Shown here one piece after another: positions 884 to 7,718 of a stretch of DNA of 37,559 nucleotides; the first letter of the stretch is position 1; each line of letters starts with the position of its first letter. The notes under the pieces are model-generated. The model did not search any database and was not told where the DNA came from. It worked only from the letters and a program-made list of their open reading frames with translations. This DNA is from Candidatus Aenigmatarchaeota archaeon. Lineage in GTDB: Archaea > Aenigmatarchaeota > Aenigmatarchaeia > QMZP01. The stretch spans positions 1 to 37,559 of the forward strand of contig JAFCEM010000001.1 of the NCBI GenBank assembly GCA_017609145.1, given 5' to 3'. The translations under genes were made by a program, and so were the position numbers.

Positions 884-1825
884 ATGGATATGAAAAACCT
901 TATTAAGAAGATCAAGAAGACCGGTGCAAAAAGAATTCTCCTTCAAGTTCCAGAAGGCCTTAAAACATATGCCCTTGATATGCTAGTGGCAACGATTGAA
1001 AAATATGGCATTTCTGTAATGCTCTCAGCAGAGCCATGCTACGGTGCCTGTGACCTGCGAGACAGGGAAGCGAAGCTGCTTGGCTGCGAGCTGCTTGTAC
1101 ATTTAGGGCACAGTGACATGGGTCTGAAAACAAGGGTTCCCACAATTTATGATGAATACAGGATGAAATTCAATCCTGTGCCCGTGCTAAGGAAAAACAT
1201 CACTGCTCTGAAGCCATACAAAAAGATTTGCCTCGTCACAACACTCCAATTTATAGATTCGCTCAAGTCGGCAAAGAAGTTTCTTGAGTCCGCAGCCGGC
1301 GGAAGGAAGAAGATATTCATAGGCAATCCTCTTAAGGCAAAATATCCTGGCCAGGTGCTTGGTTGTGATTTCTCCGCTGCAGAACCGTTCAGTAACATGG
1401 CTGAATGCTTTCTTTTTATGGGCTCCGGTAGCTTCCATCCCATAGGGCTTGCAATGAAGGTTGAGAAGCCGGTAATGTTTCTGGACATCGAAGCCAGAAA
1501 AATAAGAAGCATGGCAGAAGACAAAAGAAAGCAGGAGATAATAAGGGCGGCTAACATACACAAAGCACGGGAGTGCCGGGGCTTTGGTGTACTGGTCTCA
1601 ACCAAACAGGGCCAGATGCAGATAAGAACAGCGGAGGCAGTTAGGGATAAGCTCAGAAAAAAGGGAAAAAATGTATGGATAATCGTCATGGATGAAATAA
1701 GCCCAGGGAAGCTGATGGGACTGAAGCTTGATTGCCTTGTCAACTGCGCATGCCCCCGGCTCACCGACGATGTCGGGCAGTTCAAAAAACCAATTCTGAA
1801 TCCCGAAGACGTTGAAAAGTTGTGA
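884..1825 (+). CDS. dph2: Diphthamide biosynthesis enzyme Dph2 (2-(3-amino-3-carboxypropyl)histidine synthase)
   Basis: 313 aa. The N-terminus KRILLQVPEGLK...EPCYGACD...LVHLGHSDMG and the later conserved Cys residues (GQVLGCD, NCACPR) match the archaeal Dph2 pattern from memory. Confidence 0.85.
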   Translation: MDMKNLIKKIKKTGAKRILLQVPEGLKTYALDMLVATIEKYGISVMLSAEPCYGACDLRDREAKLLGCELLVHLGHSDMGLKTRVPTIYDEYRMKFNPVPVLRKNITALKPYKKICLVTTLQFIDSLKSAKKFLESAAGGRKKIFIGNPLKAKYPGQVLGCDFSAAEPFSNMAECFLFMGSGSFHPIGLAMKVEKPVMFLDIEARKIRSMAEDKRKQEIIRAANIHKARECRGFGVLVSTKQGQMQIRTAEAVRDKLRKKGKNVWIIVMDEISPGKLMGLKLDCLVNCACPRLTDDVGQFKKPILNPEDVEKL

Positions 1826-2710
1826 CTATCTTTTCGCCTCTTCGGCTATGTAATTTACAATACCCTGTGCTACATTGATGTTCGTTGCCTTCTCTATACC
1901 CGTTATGCCCGGATTTATGTTTGCTTCTATAACCTTGACCCCGTCCTTGCCCTGAATCATGTCAATAGCGCATATCTTCGCCTTGATGGCTTCTGCGCAT
2001 TTTAGTGTTATTTCCTGCATCTCATCACCCATCTTGAATGCCACACCCCTACCTCCTATTGATATGTTTGCCCTTTTCTCGTCGCCTGAAGCTATTCTTT
2101 TGAATGAGGCCAGAACTTCGTCACCTACAACAATGCCCCTTATGTCTTCACCTGGGTTTGGGATATACTCCTCGAGCAACACATCCTGCTCGAGGGTTTT
2201 CATGGTATCTATTGCGCTCTTTGCTGCACTTTTATCATCCATGAACATCACACCCTTGCCCCCGAACCCCGAAAGCAGCTTAATTATAACAGGCATCTTC
2301 TGCTTCTCCAGAATCTCCATGGCGCTTTCTTTGGACCCTGTCAGATAGGTTTTCGGGACAACTATTCCTTTGCTGGCAAAGACCTCCATGCTGATGAACT
2401 TGTTGTGTGCTATGAGTATGGTCTCTGCTGGATAGGGCTTCTTCACCCCCATATCATCAAGAAACCTGAGGATAAGGTAGCCAATCTGGGCCCGCTTGGA
2501 ATCAATCCTTGGCAGTACGTAATCAAAGTCAGCAAGACTCTTCCCCTCAAAAACAGCTTCAAGGCCATTGTCTATTCCGAGCTTGGTCTTTATGGCAGAA
2601 ACGGTTTCAACATACCTGAATTTCTTCTTCGCTTCTTCAATAAGCCTTTTCGTTGTATAGCTTATCTTCTTCGGGCCCGGGCAAAGAATCGCGAGTTTCA
2701 TAAGAATCAA
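1826..2710 (-). CDS. RimK-family ATP-grasp ligase (alpha-L-glutamate ligase type)
   Basis: 294 aa. MKLAILCPG...KPYPAETILIAHNKF...GSKESA...PVIIKLLSGFGGKGVMF...EEYIPNPGEDIRGIVVGDEV...ANISIGG is the typical RimK/LysX-type ATP-grasp layout. The substrate cannot be assigned. Confidence 0.75.
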   Translation of the reverse strand: MILMKLAILCPGPKKISYTTKRLIEEAKKKFRYVETVSAIKTKLGIDNGLEAVFEGKSLADFDYVLPRIDSKRAQIGYLILRFLDDMGVKKPYPAETILIAHNKFISMEVFASKGIVVPKTYLTGSKESAMEILEKQKMPVIIKLLSGFGGKGVMFMDDKSAAKSAIDTMKTLEQDVLLEEYIPNPGEDIRGIVVGDEVLASFKRIASGDEKRANISIGGRGVAFKMGDEMQEITLKCAEAIKAKICAIDMIQGKDGVKVIEANINPGITGIEKATNINVAQGIVNYIAEEAKR

Positions 2711-3059: not shown

Positions 3060-4322
3060 TTATTTTGTTTTCCATTTCTTTAAAGCTTCCGCGAGTTCCC
3101 TGTGGCTCTTTGCCTGCTCCTTGAGTGTTATCCCCGCATTCACAGCCTCGACGGCCTGCCTTGCTGCAAGGGCACCAGCTTTGGTGCTCTGTGGATGTGC
3201 ATGAATCCCGCCGCCCATCTGTATGATTATGTCTTTGCCGAGCATCCTGAATAGCGCGGGCACGAGACCTGGATGAAGTCCGCCCGAACAGACAGCAAAG
3301 ACGGGTTTTATCTTTCCCCATTGCTCTCCCAGTGCATTGTTTTCCCTGTCAGGTTGTATTATATCTTTCTCTATTTGCTCCTCAATCTCTTCGACTTCGG
3401 ATTTGTTGCCCTCCATTTTTCCTATTATTGTACCGATGTGTATCTGGTCCACACCAACAAGCCTTGCCAGCTTTGCCATGACAAGCATTGATATACCGTG
3501 CCTGGGGTTTCTGGTCATTGCGGCATGCATCGCCCTGTGCGCATGGAGCACCAGCCCAAGCTCCTCATTCCTCAGTGTCTGGAGCCCTGACCAGCCGCAC
3601 GTAAGTATATCAACCATGACATACCTTCCTCCGTGCTCTTTTACGAATCCTGCTCTTTCAATCATTTCCCTGGTATCGGCGGTCACGTTTGGCAGGTAGG
3701 CCTTCTTTTCGCCGGTTTCTTTTTCGGCTCTGTCCCTCATCTTCAGCATCTGGGCTACCCTTTTCCTGAAGGGATTGAATTTCTGGTCTGTCAGGTTCTC
3801 ATCATCCTTTACAATGTCGCATCCTCCCATCCATGCGTCATATGCAACCTTTGCATGGTCTGCCGTCTTCAGCCCTATCTTCGGCTTGACTATCGTGCCA
3901 AGAAGCGGCCTTTCCCTGACGCCAAAAATCTTCCTCACGCCCGCGATGCCGAACTTCGGTCCACTGAAGGATTTCATCAAAGGCCCAGGAAAATCAATAT
4001 CCTCAAGCCTGAGGTTCCTGACAAGCTTCATCCCGAATATGTTACCTGCAACACTGCTCAGAATCTGTGGAACATTACCGGGCTCGAAAAGCCCTGATGG
4101 ATATGCAATTTTTATGTGATTTTTCCTGATTTCAAAAACCCTTGCTGCGAGCCTGCTGACATAGGGTTTGGATGTTTTGACAGCAGCCCAAGTTCCTGTC
4201 GAGCTCTCGGATGCCACAGCTTCTGCCGCCTTCCTGATCGAGATGTTTCTTTCAGGTTCAATGTAGAAATTGCAAACCAAGTCGCTTTCGGGGGGTCTGT
4301 ATTTTAAGTCAATGTATGACAT
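3060..4322 (-). CDS. rbcL: Ribulose-1,5-bisphosphate carboxylase/oxygenase large subunit, form III (archaeal type)
   Basis: 420 aa with the catalytic motifs GTIVKPKIGL, GGCDIVKDDENL (carbamylated Lys context), HAHRAMHAAM, CSGGLHPG and QMGGGIHAHP. There is no small-subunit gene nearby, and the length is typical of form III. Confidence 0.92.
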   Translation of the reverse strand: MSYIDLKYRPPESDLVCNFYIEPERNISIRKAAEAVASESSTGTWAAVKTSKPYVSRLAARVFEIRKNHIKIAYPSGLFEPGNVPQILSSVAGNIFGMKLVRNLRLEDIDFPGPLMKSFSGPKFGIAGVRKIFGVRERPLLGTIVKPKIGLKTADHAKVAYDAWMGGCDIVKDDENLTDQKFNPFRKRVAQMLKMRDRAEKETGEKKAYLPNVTADTREMIERAGFVKEHGGRYVMVDILTCGWSGLQTLRNEELGLVLHAHRAMHAAMTRNPRHGISMLVMAKLARLVGVDQIHIGTIIGKMEGNKSEVEEIEEQIEKDIIQPDRENNALGEQWGKIKPVFAVCSGGLHPGLVPALFRMLGKDIIIQMGGGIHAHPQSTKAGALAARQAVEAVNAGITLKEQAKSHRELAEALKKWKTK

Positions 4323-4397: not shown

Positions 4398-5645
4398 ATG
4401 GTTACGGTTGAGTGTCTGGGGAGTGGAAGGGAGGTAGGAAGGTCCGCAATCTCGGTGGTGTCGGGAAATGACAAATTCATACTTGATTACGGGCTTGATG
4501 TGCAGGACATGAGTGTGCCGATGAACCCCGGTAGGGACATAAAAGGCGTGTTCCTTTCACATGCGCACCTTGACCACTCAGGGCATGCCCCGAACCTTTA
4601 CAGGCAGGGCTACGCGAACAGTATCTATGCAACACCCACAACATTCGGCCTTACCTCATTACTGCTCAGGGATTCGATAAAGGTGCAGGAAAGAAAGGGC
4701 ATTCAGCCGCTTTTCATGCTTCCGGACCTGAAAAAAATGGAGCGCATGAAGAAAATACTGGACATAGGCAGGAGCGTAAAGCTTGGCGGCACGACCATAA
4801 GCTTCTTTGATGCAGGTCACGTTCCCGGAAGCTGTATGACTTTGATTGAAATCGACGGAAAGAGGATACTCTACACAGGAGACGTGAAATTCATAGATAC
4901 ATACCTTATGAAGGCAGGCCATACGGACTTCCGTGACATAGATGTGCTGATAACAGAATCAACATATTCGTACAAAAATCACCCGGATCGGGGCATGCTG
5001 GCAGACAAGCTCAGGGAAATAGCTCAACACACTGTTTATAATAACGGCACACTGCTTCTGCCAGCGTTTGCAGTCGGCAGGACACAGGAACTTCTCATAA
5101 TGCTTTATGACCTTGGTTTTGAGATTTATCTTGATGGGATGGGCATAGCAGCGAGCAGGATAATCATGGGTTTCCCGAAAAGCGTGAGAAGCCCAAAGAA
5201 GCTGGAGAAGGCCTTTGGCACGGCGCGCAAAATAAGGAACCAAAGACAAAGAGAAAACGCAGTCAAAAAACCCTGCATAATAATAACAACATCCGGTATG
5301 CTCAATGGCGGCCCCGTTGGTTTTTACGTGCCCCAATTACACAAGAGGGAGGACTGCACAATGGTGATGAGCGGCTATCAGGTCGAGGGTACGGTCGGAA
5401 GGAAGCTTCTCGATACTGGCAGATACGTGAATGAAGGCCTTGACCTGAAGCTGAAAATGAAGACGGAATTCATGGACCTCAGCGCACACTGCGGCAGGGA
5501 CGGGATAATAAACTTCATAAAGAAAACAAAACCCAAAAAAACGGTCCTTGTTCATGGGGACAGGACAGTGGAATTCGCCAAAGAACTGAAAGGCATGGGA
5601 TTCGATGCCGTTGCCCCGAAGAACGGGGACAAGATAGCCGTTTAG
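4398..5645 (+). CDS. Metallo-beta-lactamase / beta-CASP family ribonuclease (aCPSF2 / RNase J-like)
   Basis: 415 aa. It has the MBL motif SHAHLDHSG, then DAGHVPGS, the beta-CASP region ...ESTYS... and a C-terminal VHGD. Confidence 0.8.
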   Translation: MVTVECLGSGREVGRSAISVVSGNDKFILDYGLDVQDMSVPMNPGRDIKGVFLSHAHLDHSGHAPNLYRQGYANSIYATPTTFGLTSLLLRDSIKVQERKGIQPLFMLPDLKKMERMKKILDIGRSVKLGGTTISFFDAGHVPGSCMTLIEIDGKRILYTGDVKFIDTYLMKAGHTDFRDIDVLITESTYSYKNHPDRGMLADKLREIAQHTVYNNGTLLLPAFAVGRTQELLIMLYDLGFEIYLDGMGIAASRIIMGFPKSVRSPKKLEKAFGTARKIRNQRQRENAVKKPCIIITTSGMLNGGPVGFYVPQLHKREDCTMVMSGYQVEGTVGRKLLDTGRYVNEGLDLKLKMKTEFMDLSAHCGRDGIINFIKKTKPKKTVLVHGDRTVEFAKELKGMGFDAVAPKNGDKIAV

Positions 5646-5905: not shown

Positions 5906-6664
5906 TTAAAAAGCTTGCAGTCCCATTGCGAAGAGCACTGCAATGAGTATGGGCTGGTGTATAAGGTATATTAGCAGTGAATGCCTCCCAAGGAAACAGA
6001 GCTGGCTTATCGGGGGTTTCGAGCGCTCCCATATCCTGAGCATGCGCCCGCCCGCGGGATACAATTTGTTGCCGAAGAATATCCCGATCAGCACGAGCCC
6101 GAACCATGGGAGCAGGGGGAAATAGTCAAGCGTGTAGAATGCTGCTGGCCTTAATCCGAGCCACATCAGCCACGGAAAACTGAATATGACGAGCTGCAGG
6201 CCAATACCGATGCAGATTAGCACTAATCCAAGCAAAAGATTAAGCCATGTCCTGCCCAGAAACGGCCGCGAGATTATTATGGCAATCCCTATGAAGTGCA
6301 GCACACCGAATATTATGAAACCATTCGGCAGGAAGAGCCATGTTGTCAGCGTTATTAGAAGCCCGTAGCCGAAAATCCTTAGCCCGCGAAGCAGGTATTT
6401 TCTGGTAAGCTGTTTTCCGGTCATTTTTTTTCTTGCCCTTGAATAGCTGAGTGTAAGAGAAACACCCACAAGGAAGATGAAAATTATTGCTGTTATCCTT
6501 GCAAACAGCCACCAGAAACCGGAATAGACATCAACAGAGAAGATGCCAAAATAGTTGAGGTCAAACATGAAATGAAAAACAATCATCATCAATATGGCAA
6601 TTCCGCGCAGGAAATCTATCTCCCAAAAACGTTTGTTTGGGGTTATGGCTGCTTTTTCTTCCAT
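5906..6664 (-). CDS. DUF1624 (heparan-alpha-glucosaminide N-acetyltransferase-like) integral membrane protein
   Basis: 252 aa. The N-terminus KRFWEIDFLRGIAILMMIVFHF is characteristic of DUF1624, and there are multiple predicted TM helices. Confidence 0.7.
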   Translation of the reverse strand: MEEKAAITPNKRFWEIDFLRGIAILMMIVFHFMFDLNYFGIFSVDVYSGFWWLFARITAIIFIFLVGVSLTLSYSRARKKMTGKQLTRKYLLRGLRIFGYGLLITLTTWLFLPNGFIIFGVLHFIGIAIIISRPFLGRTWLNLLLGLVLICIGIGLQLVIFSFPWLMWLGLRPAAFYTLDYFPLLPWFGLVLIGIFFGNKLYPAGGRMLRIWERSKPPISQLCFLGRHSLLIYLIHQPILIAVLFAMGLQAF

Positions 6665-6891
6665 ATGGTTTTGCCCTCCAGTCTAACCTCAACAACCCTG
6701 TGGAGAGGGATGAATGTTTCCTTTCCTTTATGCTCATATGTTAAATAGGATTTTTTGAGTTCTGTTACTTCACTACCTGTTATCGTCTTCCTGTCGTCTG
6801 GCGCTCCCTTGTGTAGAATTATAATTTCGCAGTCATTCAGTCTGTCTGTCCACTTCAGCATGGTGAGAATATTGTTTATGCCCGCAGCCAT
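6643..6891 (-). CDS. UPF0248 / DUF504 family small protein
   Basis: 82 aa. ...LKWTDRLNDCEIIILHKGAPDDRKTITGSEV...ETFIPLHRVVEVRLEGKTIWKK matches the DUF504 signature (W..., hRGAP..., IP.HRI). It overlaps the downstream gene by 22 nt. Confidence 0.75.
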   Translation of the reverse strand: MAAGINNILTMLKWTDRLNDCEIIILHKGAPDDRKTITGSEVTELKKSYLTYEHKGKETFIPLHRVVEVRLEGKTIWKKKQP

Positions 6892-7079
6892 ACTTATTTA
6901 TTCTGTTAAGTACATAATAACACGAATCAATTCTATGCAATGGTGGCTTTTGGTTTGCTTGTGGCAGTGGTCCTTGTTGCGGGTTGCACTGCACCAGCTG
7001 ACGGCGGCAACAATACCGGCGACGGAACCCCGAGTGCATTGACTTATACTATTGATTTTATTTTAAAGAGTCATGAGAA

Positions 7080-7151
7080 TGGACCAGGCGAGATTCGAAC
7101 TCGCAGCCTCCTGCATGCCGAGCAGGCGATCTACCATTGATCTACTGGCCC
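7080..7151 (-). tRNA. tRNA-Ala (anticodon GGC), no intron, no encoded CCA
   Basis: Reverse complement: GGGCCAG-TA-GATC-AATGGTA-GATC-G-CCTGC-TCGGCAT-GCAGG-AGGCT-GCGAG-TTCGAAT-CTCGC-CTGGTCC-A. This is a full cloverleaf with the G3:U70 alanine identity pair. The anticodon loop reads TC-GGC-AT, so position 33 is C, not U. Confidence 0.85.
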
Positions 7152-7152
7152 A

Positions 7153-7296
7153 TGGGCCGAGCCAGAATTGAACTGGCGATCTCCGCCTTGTAAGGGCGGC
7201 GTCATGCTTCTAGGAACCTCTTACAAGTTCTTTCCCGGGGTTTCTTGCGTAAGCCCTTGGGCTCCTGTAAGAAAGGCCTCACTAGACCACCGGCCC
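7153..7296 (-). tRNA. tRNA-Val (anticodon UAC) with an insert (intron) of about 69 nt in the D-loop
   Basis: Reverse complement starts GGGCCGG-TG-GTCT-AGTGAGGCC... and ends ...A-TGAC-G-CCGCC-CTTACAA-GGCGG-AGATC-GCCAG-TTCAATT-CTGGC-TCGGCCC-A. The acceptor, anticodon and T arms are perfect. The two D-stem halves (GTCT / TGAC) are separated by about 80 nt where 8-11 nt would be normal. Confidence 0.8.
7206..7274 (-). other. Putative non-canonical tRNA intron in the D-loop of tRNA-Val (boundaries approximate)
   Basis: Removing about 69 nt leaves the D-loop AGTGAGGCCA and a 75-nt tRNA. The insert contains a 7-bp helix TCTTACA/TGTAAGA (7266-7272 with 7219-7225), a GCCC-AA-GGGC hairpin and a CCCGGG palindrome. 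I could not place an exact bulge-helix-bulge by eye. Confidence 0.55.
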
Positions 7297-7320
7297 ATTT
7301 AAGATTTTAACTCAAAACAG

Positions 7321-7330
7321 ATTTATAAAT
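7321..7330 (-). promoter_or_regulatory. TATA-box candidate for the tRNA-Val/tRNA-Ala transcription unit
   Basis: ATTTATAAAT is centred about 29 nt upstream of the tRNA-Val 5' end (7296). tRNA-Ala follows tRNA-Val after a single nucleotide, so the two are probably one transcript. Confidence 0.45.
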
Positions 7331-7342
7331 GCGCCGACCGGG

Positions 7343-7497
7343 ATTTCCTCCCTGAGAGACTTACCCGGAATTATCATATTAACGGTTTGAACCGCTAATC
7401 TGCATGTTCTTTGGGTAAGCCTTAGCCTTTCTTCGAACACCCCTAATGCAAACGAGGATTCCCTGCTTGCGCAGGGGATGTTTTCGAAAGGCTCAGG
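7343..7497 (-). other. tRNA-Gly intron 3, 155 nt, within the T-loop/T-stem (boundary ambiguous over a few nt)
   Basis: The 5' T-stem strand and loop CCGGG-TTCGATT are separated from the matching CCCGG-TCGGCGC-A by 155 nt. The insert folds into long helices: AGCCTTTC/GAAAGGCT, CCCTGC-GCAA-GCAGGG and GGCTTACCC/GGGTAAGTC. Confidence 0.7.
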
Positions 7498-7519
7498 AAT
7501 CGAACCCGGGTCTCCACCG

Positions 7520-7537
7520 AACTGCTCGGCAACCGAA
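7520..7537 (-). other. tRNA-Gly intron 2, 18 nt, canonical 37/38 position with textbook bulge-helix-bulge
   Basis: Anticodon stem TCACC/GGTGG; 4-bp helix CTGC/GCAG; 5' bulge CA|T; intron helix TCGG/CCGA with TTG loop; 3' bulge TT|C. The intron sequence is TTCGGTTGCCGAGCAGTT. Confidence 0.85.
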
Positions 7538-7546
7538 TGGCAGGGT

Positions 7547-7561
7547 TCCGCGCGAATGCTT
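7547..7561 (-). other. tRNA-Gly intron 1, 15 nt, inside the 5' strand of the anticodon stem (about position 28/29 or 29/30)
   Basis: The 5' stem strand TCACC pairs with GGTGG only after AAGCATTCGCGCGGA is removed. The boundary can slide by 1 nt because of flanking A residues. I could not draw a clean BHB. Confidence 0.6.
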
Positions 7562-7589
7562 GACGTCCTACCGCTAGACTATCGGCGCA

Positions 7590-7718
7590 TTAGGCTTCTT
7601 CGCCTTTTTTCAGTTTCTTTACGTTAGTGCTCCTGCATTTGGGACAAAGCCTCGTCGCCGGCTCCATGAAAATGGGCTTTCCAACCCATCCGCAGTTCTC
7701 GCACTTGTATTTTGCCAT
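7590..7718 (-). CDS. Small zinc-ribbon protein (CxxC...CxxC), 42 aa
   Basis: Too short for the ORF track. Reverse-strand ATG at 7716-7718 and TAA at 7590-7592: MAKYKCENCGWVGKPIFMEPATRLCPKCRSTNVKKLKKGEEA. There are two CxxC knuckles, and the gene fits exactly between SRP54 and tRNA-Gly. Confidence 0.5.
   Translation of the reverse strand: MAKYKCENCGWVGKPIFMEPATRLCPKCRSTNVKKLKKGEEA

Follow-up and report, generated by a model that had tools for sequence, protein, structure and literature searches.

Genomic Context and Structure of the tRNA Cluster

On the minus strand of the analyzed window (the whole stretch of DNA under study, 37,559 nt) lies a tRNA cluster with a tRNA-Gly(GCC) gene that is interrupted three times, a hidden tRNA-Val(UAC) gene with a predicted intron in the D-loop and an uninterrupted tRNA-Ala(GGC) gene (Table 1). 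The neighboring genes, coding for SRP54, aIF2-alpha, S27e, L44e, GINS, primase, LeuRS, thermosome and a form-III-like RuBisCO, provide an archaeal context, and the G + C content of the window is about 47%. Among 185,579 species genomes, the best SRP54 matches were all found in MAGs of Candidatus Aenigmatarchaeota and were at most 74% identical; a larger protein collection contained nearest SRP54 relatives with 84-86% identity. The host is thus an Aenigmatarchaeote (DPANN) without a close sequenced relative in the collections searched.

Table 1. Exons, introns and tRNA genes of the cluster, with positions in the window.
Feature	Position	Strand	Remarks
tRNA-Gly(GCC), whole gene	7330..7588	-	70 nt plus discriminator A; CCA not encoded
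Exon 1, tRNA positions 1-29 (acceptor 5' strand, D arm, G26, U27 C28 A29)	7561..7588	-	identical to positions 1-29 of L086/L087
Intron 1, 15 nt, AGCAUUCGCGCGGAA, site 29/30	7546..7560	-	BHB; homologs in six loci
Exon 2, positions 30-37 (CC and CUGCCA, anticodon GCC)	7538..7545	-	
Intron 2, 18 nt, UUCGGUUGCCGAGCAGUU, canonical site 37/38	7520..7537	-	strict hBHBh'; homolog in L011
Exon 3, positions 38-59 (anticodon stem 3' strand, variable loop AGAC, T stem 5' strand, T loop UUCGAU)	7499..7519	-	
Intron 3, 155 nt, T loop, site 59/60	7344..7498	-	relaxed BHB; 45-46-nt introns at the same site in L003/L004/L028
Exon 4, positions 60-73 (U60, T stem 3' strand CCCGG, acceptor 3' strand UCGGCGC, discriminator A)	7330..7343	-	
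Hidden tRNA-Val(UAC) with candidate 72-nt D-loop intron (7208-7279)	7153..7296	-	D-loop plausibility and motif
tRNA-Ala(GGC), uninterrupted	7080..7151	-	ARAGORN and Rfam

The 71 nt of the tRNA-Gly(GCC) are encoded by 259 nt, which read from 7588 to 7330, with the discriminator A at 7330, in the order GCGCCGA-UA-GUCU-AGCGGUA-GGAC-G-UCA (15 nt) CC-CUGCCA (18 nt) C-GGUGG-AGAC-CCGGG-UUCGAU (155 nt) U-CCCGG-UCGGCGC-A. An initial annotation had described a 259-nt locus for a 71-nt tRNA without giving the strand, which is minus; its coordinates are right, and the acceptor stem (GCGCCGA/TCGGCGC-A) and the D arm (GTCT/GGAC) are present as it claimed. It can also be seen in the sequence that, as had been proposed, only the removal of intron 1 brings together the TCA-CC that pairs with GGTGG.

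The automatic detection with ARAGORN (whole window) and with Rfam at the gathering threshold resulted in the tRNA-Ala(GGC) at 7079-7152 only, and both the tRNA-Gly and the tRNA-Val(UAC) gene were missed by the two tools. After in silico deletion of positions 7560-7546, 7537-7520 and 7498-7344, a 71-nt tRNA-Gly(GCC) with every stem paired was called by ARAGORN, and the cloverleaf that had been postulated on removal of three segments is thus a perfect one. When introns 1 and 3 alone were deleted, ARAGORN reported a tRNA-Gly(GCC) in which 18 nt remain as a canonical intron at 37/38. Furthermore, the locus was also picked up by an independent, crude scan of the whole window for the acceptor, D-arm and T-stem, the output of which consisted of the tRNA-Gly locus, the tRNA-Ala and one spurious match within a coding region. 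A split or permuted (trans-spliced) tRNA gene was ruled out, as the four exons follow one another in order on the same strand, in a stretch of 259 nt.

The tRNA-Val(UAC) gene is located between tRNA-Gly and tRNA-Ala, and a clean 72-nt tRNA is obtained when 72 nt are removed after nt 17. The motif at this candidate intron consists of CUAG/CUAG with the bulges UG↓A and AA↓G (arrows mark the cut here and below) and a 2-bp inner helix, but no outer helix (HBh'-like). Its boundaries were placed by D-loop plausibility and this HBh'-like motif alone, using the window sequence only. The intron would show that the same splicing system serves another gene of the cluster.

The sequence UUUAUAAA at 7322-7329 (-), about 30 nt upstream of tRNA-Val, is located where an archaeal TATA box would be expected. 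Due to the single nucleotide between tRNA-Val and tRNA-Ala (7151-7153), these two genes are probably co-transcribed. Upstream of tRNA-Gly, no convincing TATA box and no obvious own promoter could be found, and a 42-codon zinc-ribbon ORF (MAKYKCENCGWVGKPIFMEPATRLCPKCRSTNVKKLKKGEEA, 7590-7718, minus strand) ends 1 nt before the gene; its transcription is therefore probably by read-through or from a weak internal promoter. In the same slot between SRP54 and tRNA-Gly, ORFs of 40-42 codons were called in L086 and L088. A sigma-70 and terminator scan was disregarded as not applicable to an archaeon.

Splicing Motifs at the Exon-Intron Junctions

The hBHBh' motif, in which two 3-nt bulges are separated by a 4-bp helix, was scored over every candidate cut-site pair, with the cut set after the second nucleotide of each bulge. 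The motif can be seen at all three junctions of the tRNA-Gly gene, in a strict form at intron 2, a near-strict form at intron 1 and only a relaxed form at intron 3. If at least 3/4 central pairs and at least two pairs per flanking helix are required, as found at the three junctions, only 0.33% of site pairs drawn at random from this sequence qualify, and the agreement at all three junctions is therefore more than chance.

The motif of intron 2 is strict and has the form drawn in the initial annotation, in which the central helix CUGC/GCAG is fully paired (4/4), the bulges read CA↓U and UU↓C, and UCGG/CCGA makes up the inner helix. Its outer helix is the anticodon stem, which has 3 bp as long as intron 1 is present and 5 bp once intron 1 is removed. 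Intron 1 is framed by a 6-bp outer helix, in which GGUAGG from the D loop and the 3' strand of the D stem pairs with CCUGCC (positions 31-36, anticodon loop). Its central helix (A)CGU/GCG(G) has 3/4 pairs here and 4/4 in L028, and the motif is near-strict; the bulges read CA↓A and AA↓C, and a tetraloop caps the 2-bp inner helix GC/GC. When the 259-nt precursor was folded without constraints, its MFE structure (-113.5 kcal/mol, z = -6.6) already contained the outer and inner helices of intron 1, plus two central pairs in a shifted register.

The nucleotides C32-C35 are needed twice, once for the outer helix of intron 1 and once for the central helix of intron 2. The two motifs are therefore mutually exclusive, and the two introns would have to be cut in succession. 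For closely spaced introns, a motif that forms only when the other is unformed or removed has been described with tRNAscan-SE 2.0 (PMC8450103). The MFE folds were discarded as uninformative on the cut order, as RNAfold favors GGUAGG/CCUGCC even in the mature tRNA; mutual exclusivity alone is claimed here.

Intron 3 was confirmed as well, with a refinement of the junction given initially (60/61). The junction slides over four positions (U59↓U60↓C↓C), and the spliced product is unchanged whether the intron is placed at 59/60 or 60/61. Site 59/60 is preferred, since a BHB is formed in this register only and the orthologs are cut there. In this motif, the T stem serves as a 5-bp outer helix, 3/4 pairs are formed in the central helix UUC(G)/(A)GGA, the bulges read AU↓U and AA↓U, and CCU/GGG makes up a 3-bp inner helix. 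In the nearest-neighbor model, the register UUCCUG/CAGGGA competes with this arrangement and is favored by 3.5-10.6 kcal/mol, depending on the constraint. The motif of intron 3 fits the "relaxed" class only and is the weakest of the three.

Orthologous Genes, Intron Combinations and Covariation

In the relatives, the tRNA-Gly(GCC) gene is found in the same slot, just downstream of SRP54 and the small zinc-ribbon ORF. The genomes L086/L087, whose SRP54 is 84% identical, contain an unsplit tRNA-Gly(GCC) that is identical to the predicted spliced product in 70 of 71 positions, the single difference being G57 in the window and A57 in L086/L087, both purines. Disabling changes in the window copy, which according to the initial annotation would make it a pseudogene if an uninterrupted copy existed elsewhere, are absent from the exons. 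Further unsplit orthologs are present in L002, L014 and L027. In the two loci with the closest SRP54 (85-86%; L083 and L084), the synteny is broken and the tRNA is absent downstream of SRP54. A metagenome scan with the intron-1 pattern revealed two loci only, neither of them nearer to the window.

Introns at both 29/30 and 59/60, with none at 37/38, were identified in L003, L004 and L028/L081. Their 29/30 introns have 15 nt, of which 14 are identical to intron 1 of the window in the case of L003, and their 59/60 introns have a length of 45-46 nt, those of L004 and L028 forming strict BHBs. L005 and L082 contain the 29/30 intron alone, L088 combines a 16-nt intron at 29/30 with a 32-nt intron at 53/54, and L011 a 19-nt intron at 37/38 (GUCGGGGCACCGAGCAGAU), clearly related to intron 2 of the window, with a 33-nt intron at 53/54. 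In total, the four intron sites (29/30, 37/38, 53/54 and 59/60) occur in at least six combinations across the orthologs of the phylum, and among the orthologs compared, three introns together are found in the window gene only. Introns 1 and 2 have clear homologs elsewhere, and intron 3 has shorter counterparts at the same site.

For all 15 introns of the eight split genes, a BHB with 3-nt bulges is located exactly at the junction of the exon alignment, and at junctions that do not slide, the alignment junction equals the BHB cut. The BHB of intron 1, homologs of which occur in L003, L004, L005, L028, L082 and L088, is 93% paired over six distinct orthologous sequences, compared to 20-50% in slid controls. 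It contains two compensatory pairs, one changing from G-C via G.U to A-U in the central helix and one from C-G to U-A in the inner helix. A natural intron-less allele is provided by L082, which is 96% identical to L004 over 3.4 kb of flanking sequence. L004 is part of CP070801.1, a complete chromosome of Aenigmatarchaeota. The 46-nt indel between them (L004 4546-4591) is exactly the predicted T-loop intron, by which the 59/60 junction and the cut rule are confirmed.

The exons of 11 spliced or unsplit orthologs could be aligned without gaps, and the cloverleaf is paired in 99.6% of the cells. None of 500 shuffles matched this score, and slid controls reached 34-48%. Seven compensatory exon pairs were found, including 29:41 (A-U/G-C) across introns 1 and 2 and 49:65 across the T-loop intron; compensatory pairs of the acceptor stem are 250 nt apart in the DNA of the window. 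A pseudogene does not evolve in this manner. The identification as a tRNA-Gly(GCC) gene with three BHB-type introns, in the 5' strand of the anticodon stem, at 37/38 and in the T loop, is supported by the in silico splicing, the unsplit ortholog, the intron-sharing orthologs, the covariation and the natural intron-less allele.

Proposed Processing and Enzymes

From the observed exon/intron anatomy, the motifs, the conservation and the covariation, we infer that the gene is spliced as follows. Transcription of the minus strand would result in a precursor of at least 259 nt. In this precursor, pairing of the D loop and the 3' strand of the D stem with the anticodon loop would create an alternative fold that presents intron 1, a classical extended anticodon stem would present intron 2, and intron 3 would be presented on top of the T stem. 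Introns 1 and 2 would be cut one after another, with neither assigned as the first. Cuts by EndA in the six bulges should leave 2',3'-cyclic phosphate and 5'-OH ends, the four exons could then be joined to the 71-nt tRNA by an RtcB-type ligase, and the excised introns would probably be circularized, likewise by RtcB. The basis for this is homology to the archaeal EndA/RtcB pathway (PMC4090602, PMC5829648). The gene is real and had been read correctly, and a functional DPANN tRNA-Gly(GCC) gene with three protein-spliced BHB introns, cut by EndA and joined by an RtcB-type ligase, is a highly probable explanation of the locus.

Any statement on copy number or enzymes refers to the gene content of the 37.6-kb window only. 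EndA and RtcB genes were not found there (Pfam, 30 ORFs). The introns at 29/30 and 59/60, together with the predicted D-loop intron next door that has no outer helix, imply a presumably broad specificity of EndA. An endonuclease of relaxed specificity had also been deduced in the initial annotation. The heterotetrameric (alpha-beta)2 or epsilon2 type that it suggested is not required. According to Kaneta et al. (2018), alpha4 EndAs with an "L3" insert go along with disrupted tRNA genes in several DPANN lineages (PMC5829648), which makes (alpha-beta)2 or epsilon2 just one of several possible types.

A tblastn search with an approximate sequence of the M. jannaschii EndA matched only the Micrarchaeota locus L076. 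In this MAG, two adjoining stretches resembling this query are located upstream of SRP54 (1414-2244, plus strand), which may be a multi-unit EndA.

The 155-nt Intron and Alternative Explanations

Taken alone, intron 3 has an MFE of -67.5 kcal/mol and folds far better than its shuffles (z = -7.0). The predicted fold is Y-shaped, with two long hairpins on a short closing stem. The 45-nt introns of the orthologs form one hairpin only, to which, by eye, the stem of the second hairpin of intron 3 (AGGCUUACCC/GGGUAAGUCU) is similar, and the 155-nt intron has therefore probably grown by additions. With 155 nt it is longer than the 103-nt tRNA-Trp intron of Haloferax (PMC7714728); the comparison is limited to this case, as a compiled maximum length of archaeal tRNA introns could not be found in the literature searched. 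These features would fit a segment that is no plain intron, being either composed of two nested elements removed stepwise or the carrier of a small functional RNA as in the tRNA-Trp of Haloferax. They are opposed by the searches for such elements. No Rfam match was obtained for the intron at E ≤ 10 (over 7250-7650, chance hits only), and BLAST revealed no homolog in the window or the 88 loci. On reading, the box C motif RUGAUGA is absent and the only CUGA, which is found at the 5' end, lies within a helix, and a C/D-box guide was rejected for this reason, as was an H/ACA guide. Candidates for a nested BHB are weak and compete with much stronger stems. A composite or RNA-carrying segment is unlikely on this evidence. 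That the intron is more than a spacer, be it a stable and highly structured circular RNA that has its own function or a BHB intron caught growing by internal insertions, is somewhat less doubtful, but still rather improbable. A self-splicing group I or II intron was discarded, as no Rfam intron family matched at the gathering threshold or at E ≤ 10 and the largest insert has 155 nt compared to the usual >200 nt.

The weak motif of intron 3 also bears on whether the gene is still spliced. In a formerly working two-intron gene like those of the relatives, an increase of the T-loop intron to 155 nt could have degraded the BHB of this intron, so that the copy would be spliced poorly or not at all, with tRNA-Gly(GCC) being supplied by another gene. 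Such a decaying copy would account for the 3/4 central pairs and for the cost of 3.5-10.6 kcal/mol of undoing the competing register, where the 45-46-nt introns of L004 and L028 are strict BHBs, and a second, uninterrupted tRNA-Gly(GCC) could lie outside the 37.6 kb in view. However, every stem of the undamaged exons pairs and 70 of 71 positions agree with the unsplit ortholog, and 3-nt bulges are found at the right sites on all three junctions. Furthermore, DPANN genomes of about 1 Mb usually have one gene per tRNA. Relaxed motifs are also normal for non-canonical introns where EndA has a broad specificity (PMC5829648, PMC3239211). A decaying copy is therefore quite unlikely. An assembly artifact or a chimeric contig is far less probable still and would be highly surprising. 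The contig is metagenome-derived, and an exact look-up of SRP54 (447-aa and 441-aa forms) yielded no other contig and no second assembly of the same strain; but each insertion has a BHB at its exact junction, the exon order and strand are intact, and independently assembled genomes contain homologs of introns 1 and 2 and introns at the site of intron 3.

Comparison With Known Systems and Relevance for Annotation

Archaeal tRNA genes are described as containing "one to a maximum of three" introns (PMC3239211; also PMC8450103, PMC4033280), and genes with three introns occur mostly in Pyrobaculum and Thermofilum (PMC3218864). For three-intron tRNAs of Thermoproteales, Sugahara et al. (2008) are cited in PMC8450103, PMC4033280 and PMC3218864. 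In ARMAN-2, tRNA introns at 53/54 and 59/60 are known (PMC3239211). To call the gene extreme, as had been done initially, is overstated, since three introns equal the published maximum and the T-loop sites are known. The gene reaches the known maximum, in a phylum new to the list and with a non-canonical intron of unusual length, and involves no new mechanism.

The genes of Thermoproteales resemble the window gene in having up to three BHB introns at mixed canonical and non-canonical positions, close enough for mutually exclusive motifs (PMC8450103). Their hosts are hyperthermophilic crenarchaea, whereas the window belongs to a mesophile-like DPANN host with about 47% G + C and contains a 155-nt intron. 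The non-canonical introns of Thermoproteales are mostly short. ARMAN-2 shares the DPANN affiliation, the T-loop sites 59/60 (window) and 53/54 (L088 and L011) and the mix of strict and relaxed BHBs, but at most two introns per gene are given in that report and its enzyme is an epsilon2 EndA. The tRNA-Trp of Haloferax volcanii also has a long, structured intron, which is excised at a BHB and circularized (PMC7714728), as is predicted here; it is located at the canonical site 37/38 and contains a C/D-box sRNA with a defined role as a guide, in contrast to the T-loop intron of the window with neither C/D boxes nor an Rfam match. A eukaryotic tRNA gene with three ectopic introns over several arms is similar in the number and spread of introns, whereas host, endonuclease and lineage are unrelated.

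No paper describing tRNA introns in Aenigmatarchaeota was found in the literature searched, and the three-intron maximum, known so far mainly from Thermoproteales, is extended to this phylum. ARAGORN and the Rfam tRNA model miss the tRNA-Gly, the tRNA-Val and split orthologs, or mislabel them (L005 and L082, "tRNA-???"), and DPANN genomes therefore seem short of essential tRNAs. Undiscovered disrupted tRNA genes in DPANN were predicted by Kaneta et al. (2018) (PMC5829648), for which the tRNA-Gly gene is a worked example. The endonuclease of Aenigmatarchaeota would need to tolerate non-canonical sites of three kinds, located in the anticodon stem, in the D loop and in the T loop. The four patchy intron sites and the L004/L082 polymorphism within one orthologous gene provide a clean data set on the gain and loss of archaeal tRNA introns. 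Should the 155-nt intron indeed be growing or functional, the locus would be a natural series of archaeal tRNA introns gained, enlarged and lost. The locus can be used for the annotation of DPANN tRNA sets and for the study of intron gain and loss.

Further Features of the Neighborhood

In L003 (5328-5483) and L005 (5277-5410), a tRNA-Leu(CAA) with anticodon-loop introns of 50-59 nt was detected by the ARAGORN intron search about 1 kb downstream of tRNA-Gly, which is a further sign of an intron-rich clade. An ORF of 251 aa with a LAGLIDADG_3 domain is located immediately downstream of the split tRNA-Gly in L088 (4619-5374, minus strand).

Just downstream of the tRNA cluster of the window, an 82-aa ORF (6643-6891, minus strand) matches PF04457, the "MJ1316 RNA cyclic group end recognition domain" (E 7.5e-10). 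Given the 2',3'-cyclic phosphate ends left by EndA, its position near the tRNAs is suggestive, but may be coincidence. A few kb from the cluster, there are a homolog of the RuBisCO large subunit, probably form III (3060-4322, minus strand), and a beta-CASP/metallo-beta-lactamase RNase (4398-5645, plus strand).
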